Assembly: GCF_048403405.1 (NCBI RefSeq)
Contig: NZ_CP183129.1
Strand: one strand, 5' to 3'
DNA: 64,000 bases
From: Escherichia coli
GTDB lineage: Bacteria > Pseudomonadota > Gammaproteobacteria > Enterobacterales > Enterobacteriaceae
The translations under genes were made by a program, and so were the position numbers. Under the pieces are notes generated by a model, which did not search any database, was not told where the DNA came from, and saw only the letters and a list, made by a program, of their open reading frames with translations. Of the stretch, positions 1,239-63,158 are shown one piece after another (position 1 is the first letter of the stretch; every line of letters begins with the position of its first letter).

Positions 1239-1322
1239 TCAACGCCATCAAAACATTGACTTTTATCGCCGTAGCCTTTTCAATAAAGGTCTTTTGAAAA
1301 GTACCAAAAGGTAACGCAAGCA

Positions 1323-1367
1323 ATGAATGCTGCTATTTTCCGCTTCTTTTTTTACTTTAGCACCTGA
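1323..1367 (+). CDS. pheM: pheST operon leader peptide (14 aa, Phe-rich)
   Basis: ATG AAT GCT GCT ATT TTC CGC TTC TTT TTT TAC TTT AGC ACC TGA encodes [14 protein letters not shown], with 5 Phe codons; lies upstream of pheS and is followed by an attenuator hairpin. Confidence 0.85.
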
Positions 1368-1413
1368 CTCCAGGAGGCTAGCGCGTGAGAAGAGAAACGG
1401 AAAACAGCGCCTG

Positions 1414-1439
1414 AAAGCCTCCCAGTGGAGGCTTTTTTT
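1414..1439 (+). terminator. pheST attenuator terminator
   Basis: GCCTCC-CAGTG-GAGGC followed by TTTTTTT, about 50 nt downstream of the leader peptide stop and about 65 nt upstream of the pheS start. Confidence 0.8.
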
Positions 1440-1463
1440 GTATGCGCGTTTTGAAAAAATTAA

Positions 1464-4895: not shown

Positions 4896-5195
4896 ATGGC
4901 GCTTACAAAAGCTGAAATGTCAGAATATCTGTTTGATAAGCTTGGGCTTAGCAAGCGGGATGCCAAAGAACTGGTTGAACTGTTTTTCGAAGAGATCCGT
5001 CGCGCTCTGGAAAACGGCGAACAGGTGAAACTCTCTGGTTTTGGTAACTTCGATCTGCGTGATAAGAATCAACGCCCGGGACGTAACCCGAAAACGGGCG
5101 AGGATATTCCCATTACAGCACGGCGCGTGGTGACCTTCAGACCCGGGCAGAAGTTAAAAAGCCGGGTCGAAAACGCTTCGCCCAAAGACGAGTAA
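4896..5195 (+). CDS. ihfA: Integration host factor alpha subunit
   Basis: 99 aa [99 protein letters not shown]; 4 nt after the pheT stop. Confidence 0.95.
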
Positions 5196-5207
5196 TCTGA
5201 TCTAACT

Positions 5208-5235
5208 AAAAAGGCCGCTCTGCGGCCTTTTTTCT
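5208..5235 (+). terminator. Rho-independent terminator after ihfA
   Basis: AAAAAGGCCGC-TCTG-CGGCCTTTTTTCTTTTC. Confidence 0.75.
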
Positions 5236-5295
5236 TTTCACTGTCGAAGAGTCACCGTAAAATCAACGCCATGACACTTCAGCAGAACGGATACC

Positions 5296-29832: not shown

Positions 29833-29971
29833 CGTGTAATGGCTGCATGAAATAAACAATAAAATATAAATAACATTATCAGCCTGCTGACGGCTTGAAG
29901 AGAGTCACAGTATCTTGTGCAACATTATTGGAAAGCGTGAGGGGCGAGGTAGCGAAGCGGAAAAATGTTAA

Positions 29972-30075
29972 AAAAAAGCCCATCGTGGGAGATGGGCAAA
30001 GACTACACACAGCAATTCGTTGTTTCACTCAGGGGATTTCCATGCTTATAAATCAATATGTTGATTTATAACCGT
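29972..30075 (-). ncRNA. rprA: RprA small regulatory RNA (rpoS translational activator)
   Basis: The minus strand reads ACGGTTATAAATCAACATATTGATTTATAAGCATGGAAATCCCCTGAGTGAAACAACGAATTGCTGTGTGTAGTCTTTGCCCATCTCCCACGATGGGCTTTTTTT, matching the RprA sequence I recall, with an intrinsic terminator at its 3' end. Confidence 0.85.
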
Positions 30076-30260: not shown

Positions 30261-31373
30261 TTACTTATTCGGTTTCTCGATTTCGCCAAGTTCTTCGAGA
30301 ACTTCTTCCGGTTGGTCAGTCGGCGGTGGGACTTCTTCCACCCACGCGGCAAAAAGACGCCAGGAAACGGCTAACAGAACCGGACCAATAAACAGGCCGA
30401 TCATCCCGAAAGCAATCAAACCACCAATAACGCCAGAGAGAATCAGGATCAGCGGTAAATCGGCACCCATGCGAATTAACATTGGGCGGATGACGTTATC
30501 CAGCGTGCCAACCACACCGCTCCACACTAACAATACCGTTCCCCAGGTGGTATCGCCAGTCCAGTAGAGCCAGATAATCGCCGGAATCAGTACCGGCAAC
30601 GGTCCAAGCTGGACAAGGCAGGAGAGGATCATTAACACCGTGAGCAAAGTTGCATAAGGTACGCCGGATACGGCGAGGCCGATACCGCCAAGCACTGCCT
30701 GTACTAACGCTGTCACCACAACACCCAGCGCCACCGCGCGGATAGCTTGTGCCGCCAGCAGCACGGCGGCATCTCCACGAACGCCTGCCAGACGGGTTGC
30801 AAAATGGCGAATGCCTTGCGCCACTTGTTCACCGCGCCAGTACAGCAGGGCGCTGAAGAGAAGCATCAGCGCACAATGCACCATAAAGCGCCCGATATGC
30901 GCCGCCTGCCCAACGAACCAGGTGGTGGTGGTGCCAATATAAGGACGGACTTTTGCCATGATCGCCGTCCCCCCCATATCCAGCAAGTTGTGCCAGCCTG
31001 CATACAGCTTCGCGCCAATCACCGGAATGGTATTAAGCCACGCCAGATCGGGTAACGTCATGTCACCGCTGGAAATGGCTTTAATTAGCGGGCCGCTGCC
31101 GTCGACGATACTGTTAACCAGCAAGGCAATAGGGATGATAAACACCATCACTAATAACAGCGTCATCACCAGAACGGCGAGAGACCGGCGACCAAACATG
31201 ATCTTTTGCAAACGTAACAATACCGGCCAGGTGGCGATAACCACCGTACCAGCCCATGCAAAGCCGAGAATAAAGGGTTGTACAATCCACAGACATGCCA
31301 CAATCATGATGGCTAAAAAGAGCACCGAAAGCAGAATTTGTGCGACATTCCTGGGCTGACGAACATTTACCAT
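30261..31373 (-). CDS. ydiK: AI-2E/PerM-family inner membrane transporter
   Basis: 370 aa polytopic membrane protein beginning MVNVRQPRNVAQILLSVLFLAIMIVACLWIVQPF. Confidence 0.88.
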   Translation of the reverse strand: MVNVRQPRNVAQILLSVLFLAIMIVACLWIVQPFILGFAWAGTVVIATWPVLLRLQKIMFGRRSLAVLVMTLLLVMVFIIPIALLVNSIVDGSGPLIKAISSGDMTLPDLAWLNTIPVIGAKLYAGWHNLLDMGGTAIMAKVRPYIGTTTTWFVGQAAHIGRFMVHCALMLLFSALLYWRGEQVAQGIRHFATRLAGVRGDAAVLLAAQAIRAVALGVVVTALVQAVLGGIGLAVSGVPYATLLTVLMILSCLVQLGPLPVLIPAIIWLYWTGDTTWGTVLLVWSGVVGTLDNVIRPMLIRMGADLPLILILSGVIGGLIAFGMIGLFIGPVLLAVSWRLFAAWVEEVPPPTDQPEEVLEELGEIEKPNK

Positions 31374-31524
31374 AACTACTTTTCACCTTTTTTGTGCGTC
31401 AAATCGTCGACGCGACGTGAACACGCGAAACTCACCTGCATAATGATGAGCAATTTCAGCGGTTTTTAACAGGCCGATTCTGCCCTTAATTCTGATGGGC
31501 GTGTTAGAAAAAAATGTGGTACAA

Positions 31525-31655
31525 CAACTCAGGCAACACGCAAACGATTTACTCGTCGTATTTCAAGTTGCATGTGCTGCGGCTACGTTCGTTCACCCCA
31601 GTCACTTACTATTGTAAGCTCCTGGAGTTCACTCGCTTGCCGCCTTCCTGCAACT
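31525..31655. repeat. ERIC (intergenic repeat unit) element
   Basis: ACTCGTCGTATTTCAAGTTGCATGTGCTGCGGCTACGTTCGTTCACCCCAGTCACTTACTATTGTAAGCTCCTGGAGTTCAC is the reverse complement of the ERIC consensus core (AAGTAAGTGACTGGGGTGA...); boundaries approximate. Confidence 0.7.
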
Positions 31656-31761
31656 CGAAATCCATAGAGTAAATAAACATCACCTTTCAGTGCGCTATTG
31701 CAGCCGCCTGAAAGAATAGTGTATCGACCTACATCACAGACCGCAGGAAAGGGTCAATATA

Positions 31762-34700
31762 ATGATTCCACAGATTTCCCAGGCACCCGGCGTCGTTCAA
31801 CTGGTGCTTAATTTTTTGCAAGAGCTGGAGCAACAGGGGTTTACCGGAGATACGGCGACAAGTTATGCCGTTCGTCTGACAATGTCGACCGACAACAGTA
31901 TTTACCAACTTCTCCCCGATGCGGTGGTATTTCCGCGTTCAACCGCAGATGTGGCGCTGATCGCCCGTCTTGCGGCGCAGGAACGCTATTCATCGCTGAT
32001 CTTTACCCCCCGCGGCGGCGGCACCGGCACTAACGGTCAGGCGCTCAACCAGGGGATTATTGTTGATATGTCCCGCCATATGAACCGCATCATCGAAATT
32101 AACCCTGAAGAGGGCTGGGTGCGCGTTGAGGCCGGGGTGATAAAAGATCAACTCAATCAGTACCTGAAACCGTTCGGCTACTTTTTTGCGCCGGAACTTT
32201 CGACCAGCAACCGGGCAACGCTCGGTGGGATGATCAATACCGATGCATCCGGTCAGGGATCGCTGGTCTATGGCAAAACGTCAGATCACGTACTTGGCGT
32301 ACGCGCGGTGTTGTTGGGGGGCGATATTCTCGATACGCAACCTTTACCCGTCGAACTGGCAGAAACGCTGGGTAAAACCAATACCGCAATCGGGCGAATT
32401 TATAACACGGTTTATCAACGTTGCCGTCAGCAACGCCAGTTAATCATCGACAACTTCCCCAAACTTAACCGCTTTCTTACCGGTTACGATCTGCGTCATG
32501 TCTTTAACGATGAGATGACCGAGTTCGACCTGACGCGCATTCTGACGGGTTCAGAAGGGACGCTGGCCTTTATTACCGAAGCGCGGCTGGATATTACGCC
32601 CTTGCCTAAAGTGCGCCGTCTGGTGAACGTCAAATATGACTCTTTTGACTCCGCGCTGCGTAACGCGTCGTTTATGGTTGAGGCGCGGGCGCTTTCGGTA
32701 GAGACGGTAGACTCAAAAGTGCTGAATCTGGCGCGGGAAGATATTGTCTGGCATTCCGTCAGCGAGTTGATTACCGATGTGCCTGACAAAGAAATGCTCG
32801 GGCTGAACATTGTGGAATTTGCTGGTGATGATGAGGCGCTGATTGACGAGCGAGTAAATGCACTCTGTGCGCGGCTGGATGAACTTATCGCCAGTCAGCA
32901 AGCAGGTGTGATCGGCTGGCAGGTATGCAGTGAGCTGGCAGGTGTTGAGCGTATTTATGCGATGCGCAAAAAAGCTGTCGGCCTGCTCGGTAATGCCAAA
33001 GGAGCAGCCAAGCCAATTCCGTTTGCTGAGGATACCTGCGTACCGCCGGAACATCTGGCCGATTATATTGCTGAATTTCGCGCGCTGCTCGACAGCCACG
33101 GCTTAAGCTACGGTATGTTCGGTCACGTCGACGCAGGTGTCTTGCACGTCCGTCCTGCGCTGGATATGTGCGATCCGCAACGAGATTTTGATGAAGCAAA
33201 TCTCTGATGATGTAGTGGCGCTTACCGCGAAATACGGTGGTTTGTTGTGGGGCGAACACGGCAAAGGTTTTCGCGCCGAATACAGCCCGGCGTTTTTTGG
33301 TGAGGAACTTTTTGCAGAACTGCGTAAAGTGAAAGCGGCATTTGACCCGCATAACCGACTCAACCCTGGGAAGATTTGCCCGCCAGAAGGTCTTGATGCG
33401 CCGATGATGAAAGTGGACGCGGTGAAGCGCGGTACATTCGATCGACAGATCCCCATTGCGGTACGCCAGCAGTGGCGTGGTGCAATGGAGTGTAACGGCA
33501 ACGGTTTATGCTTCAACTTTGATGCTCGTAGTCCGATGTGTCCGTCGATGAAGATCACCCAGAACCGGATTCATTCACCGAAAGGGCGCGCTACGCTGGT
33601 ACGTGAATGGCTGCGTTTGTTGGCGGATCGCGGCGTTGACCCACTCAAACTGGAACAAGAACTGCCTGAATCCGGCGTCAGTTTGCGGACGTTAATTGCC
33701 CGCACGCGCAATAGCTGGCATGCGAATAAAGGCGAATATGACTTCTCACACGAAGTCAAAGAGTCGATGTCGGGCTGTCTGGCCTGTAAAGCGTGTTCGA
33801 CTCAGTGCCCCATCAAAATTGATGTGCCGGAGTTTCGCTCTCGTTTCCTGCAACTCTATCACACCCGTTATTTACGCCCGCTGCGCGACCACCTCGTCGC
33901 TACGGTTGAGAGTTACGCACCGCTGATGGCACGCGCGCCGAAAACCTTTAACTTCTTCATTAACCAGCCGCTGGTGCGCAAACTCTCGGAAAAACATATC
34001 GGCATGGTTGATTTGCCGCTGCTGTCGGTCCCCTCGCTACAACAACAAATGGTGGGGCATCGCTCGGCAAACATGACGCTGGAACAGCTTGAAGCTCTCA
34101 ATGCAGAGCAGAAAGCGCGCACGGTGCTGGTGGTGCAGGACCCCTTTACCAGCTATTACGATGCGCAAGTTGTGGCGGATTTTGTCCGTCTGGTCGAAAA
34201 ATTAGGTTTCCAGCCTGTGTTACTGCCATTTTCGCCAAATGGCAAAGCCCAGCATATCAAAGGCTTTCTTAATCGTTTTGCGAAGACGGCGAAAAAGACG
34301 GCGGATTTCCTCAACCGTATGGCGAAGCTGGGGATGCCAATGGTGGGCGTCGATCCGGCGCTGGTACTTTGTTATCGCGATGAATATAAACTGGCACTGG
34401 GCGAAGAACGTGGCGAGTTTAACGTCTTACTGGCGAATGAATGGCTGGCAAGCGCACTTGAGTCACAGCCAGTGGCTACAGTCAGCGGTGAATCATGGTA
34501 TTTATTTGGTCACTGTACCGAAGTTACCGCCTTGCCGGGCGCGCCAGCACAATGGGCCGCGATATTTGCCCGTTTTGGCGCGAAACTGGAAAATGTCAGC
34601 GTGGGTTGCTGCGGCATGGCAGGGACTTACGGACATGAAGCGAAAAACCATAAAAATTCGCTCGGGATCTATGAGTTATCCTGGCATCAGGCGATGCAGC

Positions 34701-34816
34701 GACTGCCGCGTAATCGCTGTCTGGCGACCGGATATTCCTGCCGTAGCCAGGTAAAACGAGTTGAAGGCACGGGGGTACGCCATCCTGTGCAGGCTTTACT
34801 GGAGATTATTAAATGA
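31762..34816 (+). pseudogene. ydiJ: ydiJ (FAD-linked oxidoreductase with C-terminal Cys-rich domain), reading frame interrupted
   Basis: The gene is split into ORF 31762..33207 (481 aa, FAD-binding PCMH-type domain, ending ...GHVDAGVLHVRPALDMCDPQRDFDEANL) and ORF 33137..34816 (559 aa, in the +1 frame, continuing ...EILMKQISDDVVALTAKYGGLLWGEHGKG); together they make the roughly 1018-aa protein I recall for K-12 YdiJ. Confidence 0.7.
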
Positions 34817-35511: not shown

Positions 35512-35703
35512 TTCTGACTTAATGCCGCAATTTCGCCAAATCGACCTGGATTAACCTCCGTCCAGGTTCGATAACCTTCTTAATACTGCTTATCTACCCG
35601 CCTGATATTGTTCAAAAATAATACTAATCGCAGTTTGTGTTAAAACGGCGGGTTAGCTTTATGAGATTATTCTTATCGCCCCTTCAAGAGCTAAGCCACT
35701 GAG

Positions 35704-35772
35704 AGTGCCGGAGATAAGCGCCGGATGGGGTAGAAACCCTTAAGCCTGTGTCGCACAGACTTAAGGGTTTTC
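35704..35772 (+). ncRNA. rydB: Probable small RNA RydB (boundaries approximate)
   Basis: A strong intrinsic terminator on the plus strand (CCCTTAAGCCTGTG-TCG-CACAGACTTAAGGG followed by TTTTCTTATTT) sits about 230 nt after ydiH, too far to be the ydiH terminator, at the place where K-12 has rydB between ydiH and sufA; the 5' end is a guess from the known ~68 nt length. Confidence 0.4.
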
Positions 35773-53441: not shown

Positions 53442-53747
53442 TCAGGCGAGTTTTGCCTGATTGATTTGACTAAGTGGCTCATTGACATCGAAAACTTTGG
53501 CGACAACTTCCTCAACGCCGAGATTTTTCAGTCGGGCAGTATGTTTTTCCAGATAGGCAAGGGCGCTTTTTTCATCAGTAAAAAGGTAGATCCCACCGGC
53601 TTCGTGGTTCTTTTCACTTTCTGTCCATACCTTCCACAGAAAACCAGGTTCCTGATTAATCGACTCAGCAAGCGGTTTAAGCTGCTCAGCCATTGCGTCG
53701 CCAAATGGGCCATTGAAAGAAAAATGAAGTTGTAACAAAGTTGCCAT
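53442..53747 (-). CDS. ydhR: Putative monooxygenase YdhR (Dabb-like)
   Basis: 101 aa, [56 protein letters not shown]. Confidence 0.85.
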
Positions 53748-53855
53748 AGCGATTCTCCTTCTGATAACGCATACGAAGACAGTGTAAATCTTTTAACGTA
53801 TTGGATACAGAGAAGAAACAGAGGGAAAAAAGGAGAAGACCAGATTAAGAAAATC

Positions 53856-53932
53856 TGGTGCGTCCGAGTGGACTCGAACCACCGACCCCCACCATGTCAA
53901 GGTGGTGCTCTAACCAACTGAGCTACGGACGC
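53856..53932 (-). tRNA. valW: tRNA-Val (anticodon GAC)
   Basis: The minus strand reads GCGTCCGTAGCTCAGTTGGTTAGAGCACCACCTTGACATGGTGGGGGTCGGTGGTTCGAGTCCACTCGGACGCACCA: a cloverleaf with a GAC anticodon and encoded CCA. Which copy is valV and which is valW is inferred from K-12 order. Confidence 0.9.
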
Positions 53933-53936
53933 AGGA

Positions 53937-54013
53937 TGGTGCGTTCAATTGGACTCGAACCAACGACCCCCACCATGTCAAGGTGGTGCTCTAACCAACT
54001 GAGCTATGAACGC
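53937..54013 (-). tRNA. valV: tRNA-Val (anticodon GAC)
   Basis: The minus strand reads GCGTTCATAGCTCAGTTGGTTAGAGCACCACCTTGACATGGTGGGGGTCGTTGGTTCGAGTCCAATTGAACGCACCA: same anticodon arm as the neighbour, different acceptor and T stems, 4 nt spacer. Confidence 0.9.
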
Positions 54014-62605: not shown

Positions 62606-62649
62606 TCCATTTCACTCCAGACCCTAACTTCAGCTCCTGCAAAATCGCA

Positions 62650-62665
62650 AGGTAAACGTTTGCCT
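62650..62665 (-). promoter_or_regulatory. PUR box (PurR autoregulatory operator) in the purR leader
   Basis: The minus strand reads AGGCAAACGTTTACCT, a 16-bp near-palindrome with the CAAACGTTT core, about 45 bp upstream of the purR ATG. Confidence 0.65.
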
Positions 62666-62904
62666 TTACACACCTTACGCACAACAAAAGTGTTGCGGTA
62701 CGCCGGAAAAACGACACGGAGCGTCAGGAAGGGGTCAATGGCCAGTACGCAAATAGTGTAAGCGTGGAATTTTGGCCGATCTTGACGAAAAGGGGAAGTG
62801 GTAAAAACACTTATCATTATAAATGACGGGAGATTTTTTCATCACAGTGTGTAAAAATGCGTAATATCACTTTTTGTGTGGTAATAAAAAAGGAGAAAAC
62901 TTGA

Positions 62905-62994
62905 TGAGCACCGACCTTAAATTTTCACTGGTAACAACGATTATCGTCCTCGGTTTGATCGTAGCCGTGGGTTTGACTGCCGCGCTGCACTGAT
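62905..62994 (+). CDS. ynhF: Small membrane protein YnhF (29 aa)
   Basis: ATG AGC ACC GAC ... CTG CAC TGA encodes MSTDLKFSLVTTIIVLGLIVAVGLTAALH, a single hydrophobic helix, with AAGGAGA 8 nt upstream. Confidence 0.8.
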
Positions 62995-63158
62995 TTCCTC
63001 TCGAGGGAGCGCGTTCTCCCTCGCATCTCCTTCCTGTTTGTTAGCAAAATGGCAAAAGTGTTTTCTCTTTTTGTTATTTTCATTTTTTTGTGATTGCTGT
63101 CATGCTTTCGCCACTTTAATGAATATCGCGTAATGACGCGAAGAGGTGGAGATAAGGC

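Follow-up and report, generated by a model that had tools for sequence, protein, structure and literature searches.

ERIC, a palindromic repeat of 127 bp well known from enteric bacteria, has been in the literature since 1990-91; textbooks cover the family, the hairpin that it forms and its occurrence in transcribed spacers. Strain K-12 of Escherichia coli carries 19-21 ERIC copies (PMC2267715). In Yersinia, elements of the same family are co-transcribed, form an RNA hairpin and behave in a way for which orientation matters (De Gregorio et al. 2005, as summarized in PMC2229807 and PMC3184786). According to these summaries, Yersinia ERICs destabilize the upstream cistron through the ribosome-dependent unmasking of an RNase E site, in an orientation-dependent manner. 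The Correia/NEMIS elements of Neisseria and other MITEs resemble ERIC in being small, in having terminal inverted repeats and TA ends, in inserting at TA, in lying beside or inside transcription units and in yielding long RNA hairpins (PMC2229807, PMC3184786). Correia elements differ from ERIC in that their sequence is unrelated and that they may carry promoters and IHF sites, none of which was found in the ERIC copy studied here.

This copy lies in the window, by which we mean the whole 64-kb stretch of E. coli DNA that was analyzed, between the genes ydiK and ydiJ. Compared with the ERIC family as described (1991; Wilson and Sharp 2006), it agrees in length (126 vs 127 bp), in sequence from end to end and in the core recognized by the ERIC1R and ERIC2 primers. 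It also shares the terminal inverted repeats, the single long imperfect hairpin, the extragenic but transcribed site and the many dispersed copies of the family. It departs from the family in its minor-variant arms, its TTTA/TAAA ends and a 1-nt deletion in the core. On these sequence comparisons, the feature is an ordinary copy of the known ERIC family, a non-autonomous MITE-type element of enteric bacteria, and it has every testable defining feature of ERIC/IRU/RU-1, leaving aside the TA target duplication, which is unreadable at this copy. It is not a REP/BIME unit.

Identity, edges and dispersal of the element

Two references served to identify the element, a consensus built from paralogues and the RU-1 sequence printed by Delihas (PMC2759123, Table 1a), while the ERIC-PCR primer sequences were used as printed in the literature. 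Against the published 127-nt RU-1 (PMC2759123 Table 1a), 103 of 127 positions were identical end to end with one 1-nt gap, and the local alignment score was 78, as compared with 11.2 +/- 1.7 when the spacer was shuffled 300 times (maximum 19). The ERIC2 primer site was located at 31590-31610 on the - strand, with 20/21 identical positions over the aligned stretch, and the ERIC1R site at 31613-31632 on the + strand, where 19 of the 21 primer bases matched with one mismatch and one 1-nt gap. An earlier note, made from the letters of this DNA alone, had proposed an ERIC/IRU repeat in the spacer and had named beforehand a poor alignment to the full-length consensus as the result that should count against it. 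That alignment was good, and the proposal is borne out by the end-to-end match to RU-1, by the family consensus and by both primer sites.

Alignment with eight paralogous copies placed the family-wide edges at 31548 and 31673, beyond which the flanks were unrelated among copies. The window copy is 126 bp long, with a 1-nt core deletion relative to the 127-bp consensus. Its outer arms form a 26-nt inverted repeat that is 81% complementary, and the terminal TATAC...GTATA of the family has become TTTAC...GTAAA, a change that is symmetric on both sides. The copy represents a minor sequence variant, with the left arm ...CGTCGTATTTCAAG and the right arm ...CGAAATCCATAGAG, as does the copy between ilvY and ilvC in Klebsiella. 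The interval first proposed for the repeat, 31525-31655, was in part correct: it overlaps ERIC positions 3-109 but takes in 23 nt of non-ERIC sequence at the left and leaves out 18 nt at the other end, where the right terminal repeat is located. The coordinates of all features are collected in Table 1.

Table 1. Features of the ydiK-ydiJ region, in window coordinates.
Feature	Position	Strand	Remarks
ydiK	30261-31373	-	AI-2E family transporter, left neighbor; from the ORF list and the E2865 RefSeq annotation
ydiK transcription start sites	31471, 31436	-	Left of ERIC and directed away from it; PMC6131387, mapped to the window
Candidate ydiJ promoter, extended -10 TGgTACAAC	31517-31525	+	Suggested by start site position and conservation
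ydiJ-menI-ydiH 5' leader	31532-31761	+	230 nt; K-12 start site mapped to the window
ERIC (IRU / RU-1) element	31548-31673	+	126 bp; the + strand is the published RU-1 orientation and the strand transcribed into ydiJ mRNA
Left outer palindrome arm	31547-31572		Includes terminal repeat TTTACTC (family consensus TATACTC)
Conserved central core with both ERIC-PCR primer sites	31590-31632		Alignment to primers
Right outer palindrome arm	31649-31674		Includes terminal repeat GAGTAAA (consensus GAGTATA)
Escherichia-specific single-copy segment	31674-31734	+	Adjoins ERIC; absent from the short allele
ydiJ	31762-34816	+	D-2-hydroxyglutarate dehydrogenase, right neighbor; ORFs 31762-33207 and 33137-34816, E2865 annotation

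The spacer between the two divergent genes extends from 31374 to 31761 and, measured from the gene ends, is 388 bp long rather than the 389 bp given initially. ERIC fills positions 175-300 of these 388, so that its placement in the middle of the spacer holds, and the flanking of the repeat by divergent ydiK and ydiJ agrees with both the ORFs and the E2865 annotation. The flanking genes were named after the RefSeq annotation of strain E2865, whose spacer is identical to that of the window. Indeed, the window spacer was 100% identical to that of many E. coli chromosomes, E2865 being one example, and only 3 nt separate it from the K-12 MG1655 spacer, none of them in the promoter region. Past ydiK lies rprA, and past ydiJ lie menI and ydiH. 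Elsewhere in the window, Rfam matches above gathering score were obtained for RprA, rydB, the Phe leader, STnc540, STnc550 and two tRNAs, with coordinates 29968-30075 (-), 35678-35738 (+), 1317-1441 (+), 5137-5295 (+), 62606-62996 (+) and 53859-54013 (-). A match to HPnc0260 at 53731-53894 on the + strand overlaps one tRNA in part.

The divergent arrangement of ydiK and ydiJ is kept across the Enterobacteriaceae (80 loci from a YdiK scan with one genome per species). Blocks of spacer sequence conserved across genera were found within 31374-31547 and 31735-31761, namely GACGCGACGTGAAC, TAATGATGAGCAATTTCAGCGGTTTTTAACAGG, AGAAAAAAATGTGATACAAC, ACGCAAACGAT and CACAGACCGCAGGAAAGGGTCA. These blocks presumably hold the back-to-back promoters of ydiK and ydiJ together with regulator sites; we know of no regulator acting on this spacer.

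In 5425 of the 5426 complete E. coli genomes, the window copy as query detected ERIC at 2-18 places, the median being 12. The paralogous copies were 85-88% identical to the window ERIC over its whole length, and more copies were present in records of Salmonella, Klebsiella and Citrobacter, including plasmid records, and of others. All sampled copies were extragenic: between ybhI and ybhJ, downstream of ilvN, between yajO and dxs, near yehI, between shdA and ratB in Salmonella, and between ilvY and ilvC in Klebsiella. A second copy was not found elsewhere in the 64-kb window.

Transcription and predicted folding of the element

Start sites were taken from the K-12 SMRT-Cappable-seq operon table on NC_000913.3 (Yan et al. 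2018, PMC6131387 Suppl. Data 2). For the operon of b1687 and b1686 (ydiJ-menI) and that of b1687, b1686 and b1685 (ydiJ-menI-ydiH), this table lists reverse-strand starts at 1768914 and 1768915; for b1688 (ydiK), it lists forward-strand starts at 1768976 and 1769011 (PMC6131387). By coordinate mapping, the ydiJ starts 1768915/1768914 correspond to 31532/31533 on the + strand of the window. The mapped positions place the ydiK and ydiJ promoters back to back within 31436-31533, with ERIC wholly on the ydiJ side. The element begins 15-16 nt past the ydiJ start and makes up nt 17-142 of the leader. Which promoter, if any, transcribes through the repeat had been left as a check in the earlier note, and the published K-12 starts give the answer: the ydiJ promoter does (31532/31533) and the ydiK promoters do not. 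We infer that the same start sites serve the window strain.

A consensus promoter scan of the spacer returned no sigma-70-like site and no canonical -35/-10 pair. The ydiJ promoter was instead placed by means of the published starts, shortly ahead of which TGgTACAAC has the form of an extended -10. In an alignment of 16 spacer sequences, Citrobacter, Salmonella and Pseudescherichia share this region as TGTGATACAAC, and TGgTACAAC is a candidate ydiJ promoter element.

A long stable hairpin this close to a transcription start could be read as a terminator or attenuator, acting either on ydiJ or on read-through from the ydiK side, and we give this reading next to no credence. The operons listed for K-12 were defined from transcripts that fully cover their genes, which indicates that the ERIC hairpin does not stop transcription; both ydiJ-menI and ydiJ-menI-ydiH are spanned completely by transcripts that begin at 31532/31533. 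There is also no U-run after the hairpin on either strand: it is followed by AAAUAAACAUCACC in the + direction and by AAUCGUUUGCGUG in the - direction. Given this lack of a U-run and the full-coverage transcripts from a start just upstream, the hairpin is not a terminator. A scan for intrinsic terminators likewise found no site at ERIC, which has no T-run at either end, and the transcription of ydiK is directed away from the element. Term-seq (PMC7815308) gave no 3' end in the spacer and only one inside ydiK. As for other published sources, ydiJ was absent from the mBio RNase III supplements, and the ydiJ enzyme paper did not mention native ydiJ regulation.

In the orientation of the ydiJ mRNA (+ strand), the element had a predicted folding energy of -43.3 kcal/mol (z = -6.4), and on the - strand one of -60.3 kcal/mol (z = -9.8). 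None of 200 shuffles was as stable as the ERIC fold. The description of the repeat as an imperfect palindrome able to form a stable RNA structure is thus in line with the energy predicted for the transcribed strand. When 22 copies were aligned, they gave a consensus fold of one long stem-loop, with 96.6% of the cells paired. Compensatory changes were observed in 9 of the 27 pairs, including pairs between positions 2-7 and 122-127, vs 3.1 +/- 1.1 in shuffles (0/500) and 1-4 when the partners were slid. Judged from this alignment, the long hairpin of the family is preserved by compensatory changes, of which the two-sided change at the ends of the window copy is itself an example.

The - strand was also predicted to fold more stably than the + strand in 21 of the 22 copies, and it is over the hairpin on this strand that three Rfam models align: V_AS5 (Vibrio), Ysr49 (Yersinia) and STnc70 (Salmonella), with 42.7 bits (full model), 29.5 and 18.6, respectively. 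Both observations would suit a small RNA antisense to the ydiJ leader, encoded by or including ERIC. However, the scores fall far below the gathering scores of 96, 95 and 40, for which reason the window ERIC was rejected as a member of these sRNA families, and the strand has no known transcription here. The only two - strand starts of the spacer in the SMRT-Cappable-seq table, 31471 and 31436, both lie downstream of ERIC, and scanning revealed no promoter-like or terminator-like site on the - strand beside it. We consider such an antisense RNA highly improbable. The three Rfam families were evidently built on ERIC-containing transcripts, to go by where their models align; Rfam holds no ERIC family of its own.

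Long and short alleles of the spacer

The 388-bp spacer, hereafter the long allele, was found in 4255 of 5426 complete E. coli genomes (78%) and a short allele in 1168 (21.5%). Together they account for 5423 of the 5426 genomes, among which no intermediate with ERIC alone or with the extra segment alone was found. The short E. coli spacer measures 213 bp, the same as in Citrobacter. Across genera, spacers that lack ERIC usually measure ~196-213 bp (213 in Citrobacter, ~199 in Enterobacter), and that of Salmonella is ~263 bp. Besides E. coli, the 388-bp form occurs in E. albertii, E. whittamii and Escherichia sp. E1V33, and the 213-bp form in Escherichia sp. MOD1-EC7003. The short-allele strains include Nissle 1917, ATCC 11775 (the type strain), NU14 and APEC O1, which we take to be phylogroup B2 strains. 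Among the matches listed with the window copy as query, short-allele genomes had fewer ERIC places (3-9) than long-allele genomes (8-17), which may reflect a real phylogroup difference or the loss of the best-matching copy together with its nearest relatives.

In E. coli, the two alleles have 176 identical bp at the left and 27 at the right. What separates these flanks is, in the long allele, 185 bp (31550-31734) made up of ERIC and a segment of ~61 bp and, in the short allele, the decamer AATCTCTCAT. Since this junction is homologous to Citrobacter AAATTCACAA at the same place, the short allele is ancestral and the long one derived; for the same reason, an origin of the short allele by deletion was ruled out. 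A TA stands at the matching position of the empty allele (ACGAT-TA-ATC). At the window copy, where a TA target duplication would be sought, both terminal TATA motifs are changed and the right flank has diverged. On our account, ERIC entered the ydiK-ydiJ spacer in an ancestor or an early lineage of Escherichia, 17-18 nt beyond the ydiJ start and through a putative TA mechanism, the point of entry being the TA of ...ACGATTAA... or a position adjoining it. Along with the unrelated segment of ~51-61 bp, it lengthens the ydiJ leader from ~55 nt to 230 nt.

The companion segment was present, as a single copy, in exactly the 4255 long-allele genomes. It contains a hairpin, CTTTCAG-N17-CTGAAAG, at 31684-31714 with a 7-bp stem, and a direct repeat ACATCAC lies on its flanks. 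We found no other copy in E. coli and none in 92 loci from other genera. The possibility that the segment is a decayed second ERIC was rejected, as it had no significant similarity to the element in either orientation.

The stretch that received the insertion is bounded by ACGCAAACGAT(T/A) on one side and by the ribosome-binding block CACAGACCGCAGGAAAGGGTCA, which is conserved, on the other. We compared it in other genera at loci L051, L057, L058, L032, L037 and L090, as well as L027, L030, L019 and L074 (upstream of ydiK, at positions ~1100-1500 of each). Independent ERICs were observed there in Enterobacter sp. JUb54, in Enterobacter genomosp. O, where the orientation is opposite, and in isolate 18061. 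The latter carries a second ERIC nearer to ydiK, which shows a clean TA duplication against an ERIC-less relative (L058 vs the empty L066). Citrobacter amalonaticus S646 has an interrupted ERIC beside the -10 region, Raoultella and Yersinia similis have degenerate or partial copies in the ydiK-ydiJ spacer, and Salmonella and two Citrobacter species carry unrelated inserts in the leader stretch. On this comparison of sequences, the ydiJ-leader stretch seems to be either a hot spot for insertions or a site that tolerates them. The presence/absence polymorphism and the independent insertions in other genera, in both orientations, are indirect evidence that the element may be mobilized in trans by a transposase.

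A separate observation concerns the coding sequence of ydiJ in the window. Alignment to intact ydiJ located a break at 33181/33182, where a 2-bp deletion (CAACAAGAG -> CAACGAG) causes a frameshift (window 33181-33207) and a stop after 481 of 1018 codons. The deletion was present in 0 of 5420 complete E. coli genomes, and an exact look-up of the truncated 481-aa YdiJ gave no recorded protein; the window may derive from Shigella or from an unusual isolate, or the deletion may be a sequencing error. Despite the identical spacer, 84 sites distinguish the window ydiJ (31762-34816) from that of E2865 (L002), a dense group of them lying at 32856-33009, and the segment around the frameshift is nearest to that of strains with the short allele, for example SK1144 and SA186. 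The window ydiJ looks like a mosaic produced by recombination.

Divergence of the insert and possible roles of the leader

Comparison of 30264-32873 with E. albertii (L016) and E. whittamii (L017) revealed a valley of low divergence centered on the spacer. Against E. albertii, the spacer had 3-6 differences per 100 nt and the coding sequences of ydiK and ydiJ had 10-19 per 100 nt; at third codon positions beyond the first 150 nt of the genes, 26-38% differed. Within the insert, ERIC differed at 6 of 126 positions and the companion segment at 5 of 61. The dip extends 100-200 nt into both ydiK and ydiJ. Such low divergence could result from purifying selection on the inserted leader or, equally, from recombinational spread of the long allele, which would also account for a presence/absence pattern that cuts across species. 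A neutral passenger would not be expected to show this conservation unless the long allele spread recently by recombination. The one unexplained point of the locus is how unusually little the insert has diverged among Escherichia species.

These data bear on whether the leader has been selected for a regulatory role, through processing by RNase E or RNase III, through protection of the 5' end, or through pairing of CCUUCCUGC with the ydiJ Shine-Dalgarno sequence, the allele being kept or spread for that reason. In favor of such a role, the spacer, with ERIC and its companion segment, shows 2-3 times less divergence from E. albertii or E. whittamii than does the coding DNA next to it; the long allele is common to E. 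coli, E. albertii, E. whittamii and E1V33, with the short one persisting in 1168 E. coli genomes and in MOD1-EC7003; and Yersinia ERICs reportedly affect how stable a co-transcribed mRNA is, depending on their orientation (De Gregorio 2005, summarized in PMC2229807). The right arm of ERIC also contains, at 31637-31651, the tract CCUUCCUGC, which is 80% complementary to the ribosome-binding region at 31743-31757. However, in the predicted fold this anti-SD-like tract sits inside the ERIC stem. When a 269-nt RNA comprising the leader and the first 39 nt of ydiJ was folded, ERIC formed a closed domain that paired only with itself, followed by the small hairpin of the companion segment, and the predicted fold around the ribosome-binding site and start codon was the same in long and short alleles.

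Further points weigh against a selected regulatory leader. The element is missing from 21.5% of E. coli genomes and from every other genus examined, and a valley that reaches 100-200 nt into the genes fits a recombination tract equally well. In addition, the mechanism described in Yersinia acts on upstream genes and cannot apply as described to the ydiJ leader, because no gene lies upstream of the element in the transcript. Hence, we regard a selected regulatory leader as unlikely. A broader version, in which ERIC and the companion segment form a cis-acting RNA module of ydiJ-menI-ydiH that was selected and then maintained or recombined across Escherichia, appears about as unlikely. It would fit an insert conserved beyond the neighboring synonymous sites, the polymorphism shared across species and the repeated capture of ERICs in other genera.

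The reading that we prefer, and hold to be very probable, is that this ERIC copy is a tolerated passenger of the ydiJ leader. The only activity that we find plausible for it would be exerted as RNA, by a bulky leader hairpin that could modestly alter the processing or half-life of the message. The insert would disturb neither promoter, as both lie outside it. It would be transcribed only from the ydiJ promoter, in the orientation that is less stable as RNA, and is predicted to fold alone into one long imperfect hairpin, with the local fold of the ribosome-binding site unchanged. A bulky structure near the 5' end might then alter the access of RNases to the ydiJ message. By default, any effect of the hairpin on mRNA stability would most likely be modest at best. 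In the window genome, any effect would fall on a broken ydiJ, together with menI and ydiH, because ydiJ is frameshifted there.

The finding as such is already known, and as K-12 carries this ERIC copy, it has probably been catalogued before. What is added here are the corrected edges of the element, its assignment to a promoter, the derived status of the insert, the allele frequencies and the unexplained conservation. Moreover, E. coli provides a natural pair of alleles, with a 230-nt ERIC leader in 78% of genomes and the ancestral leader of ~55 nt in 21.5%, which constitutes a ready-made test of the effect of an ERIC in a 5' leader.
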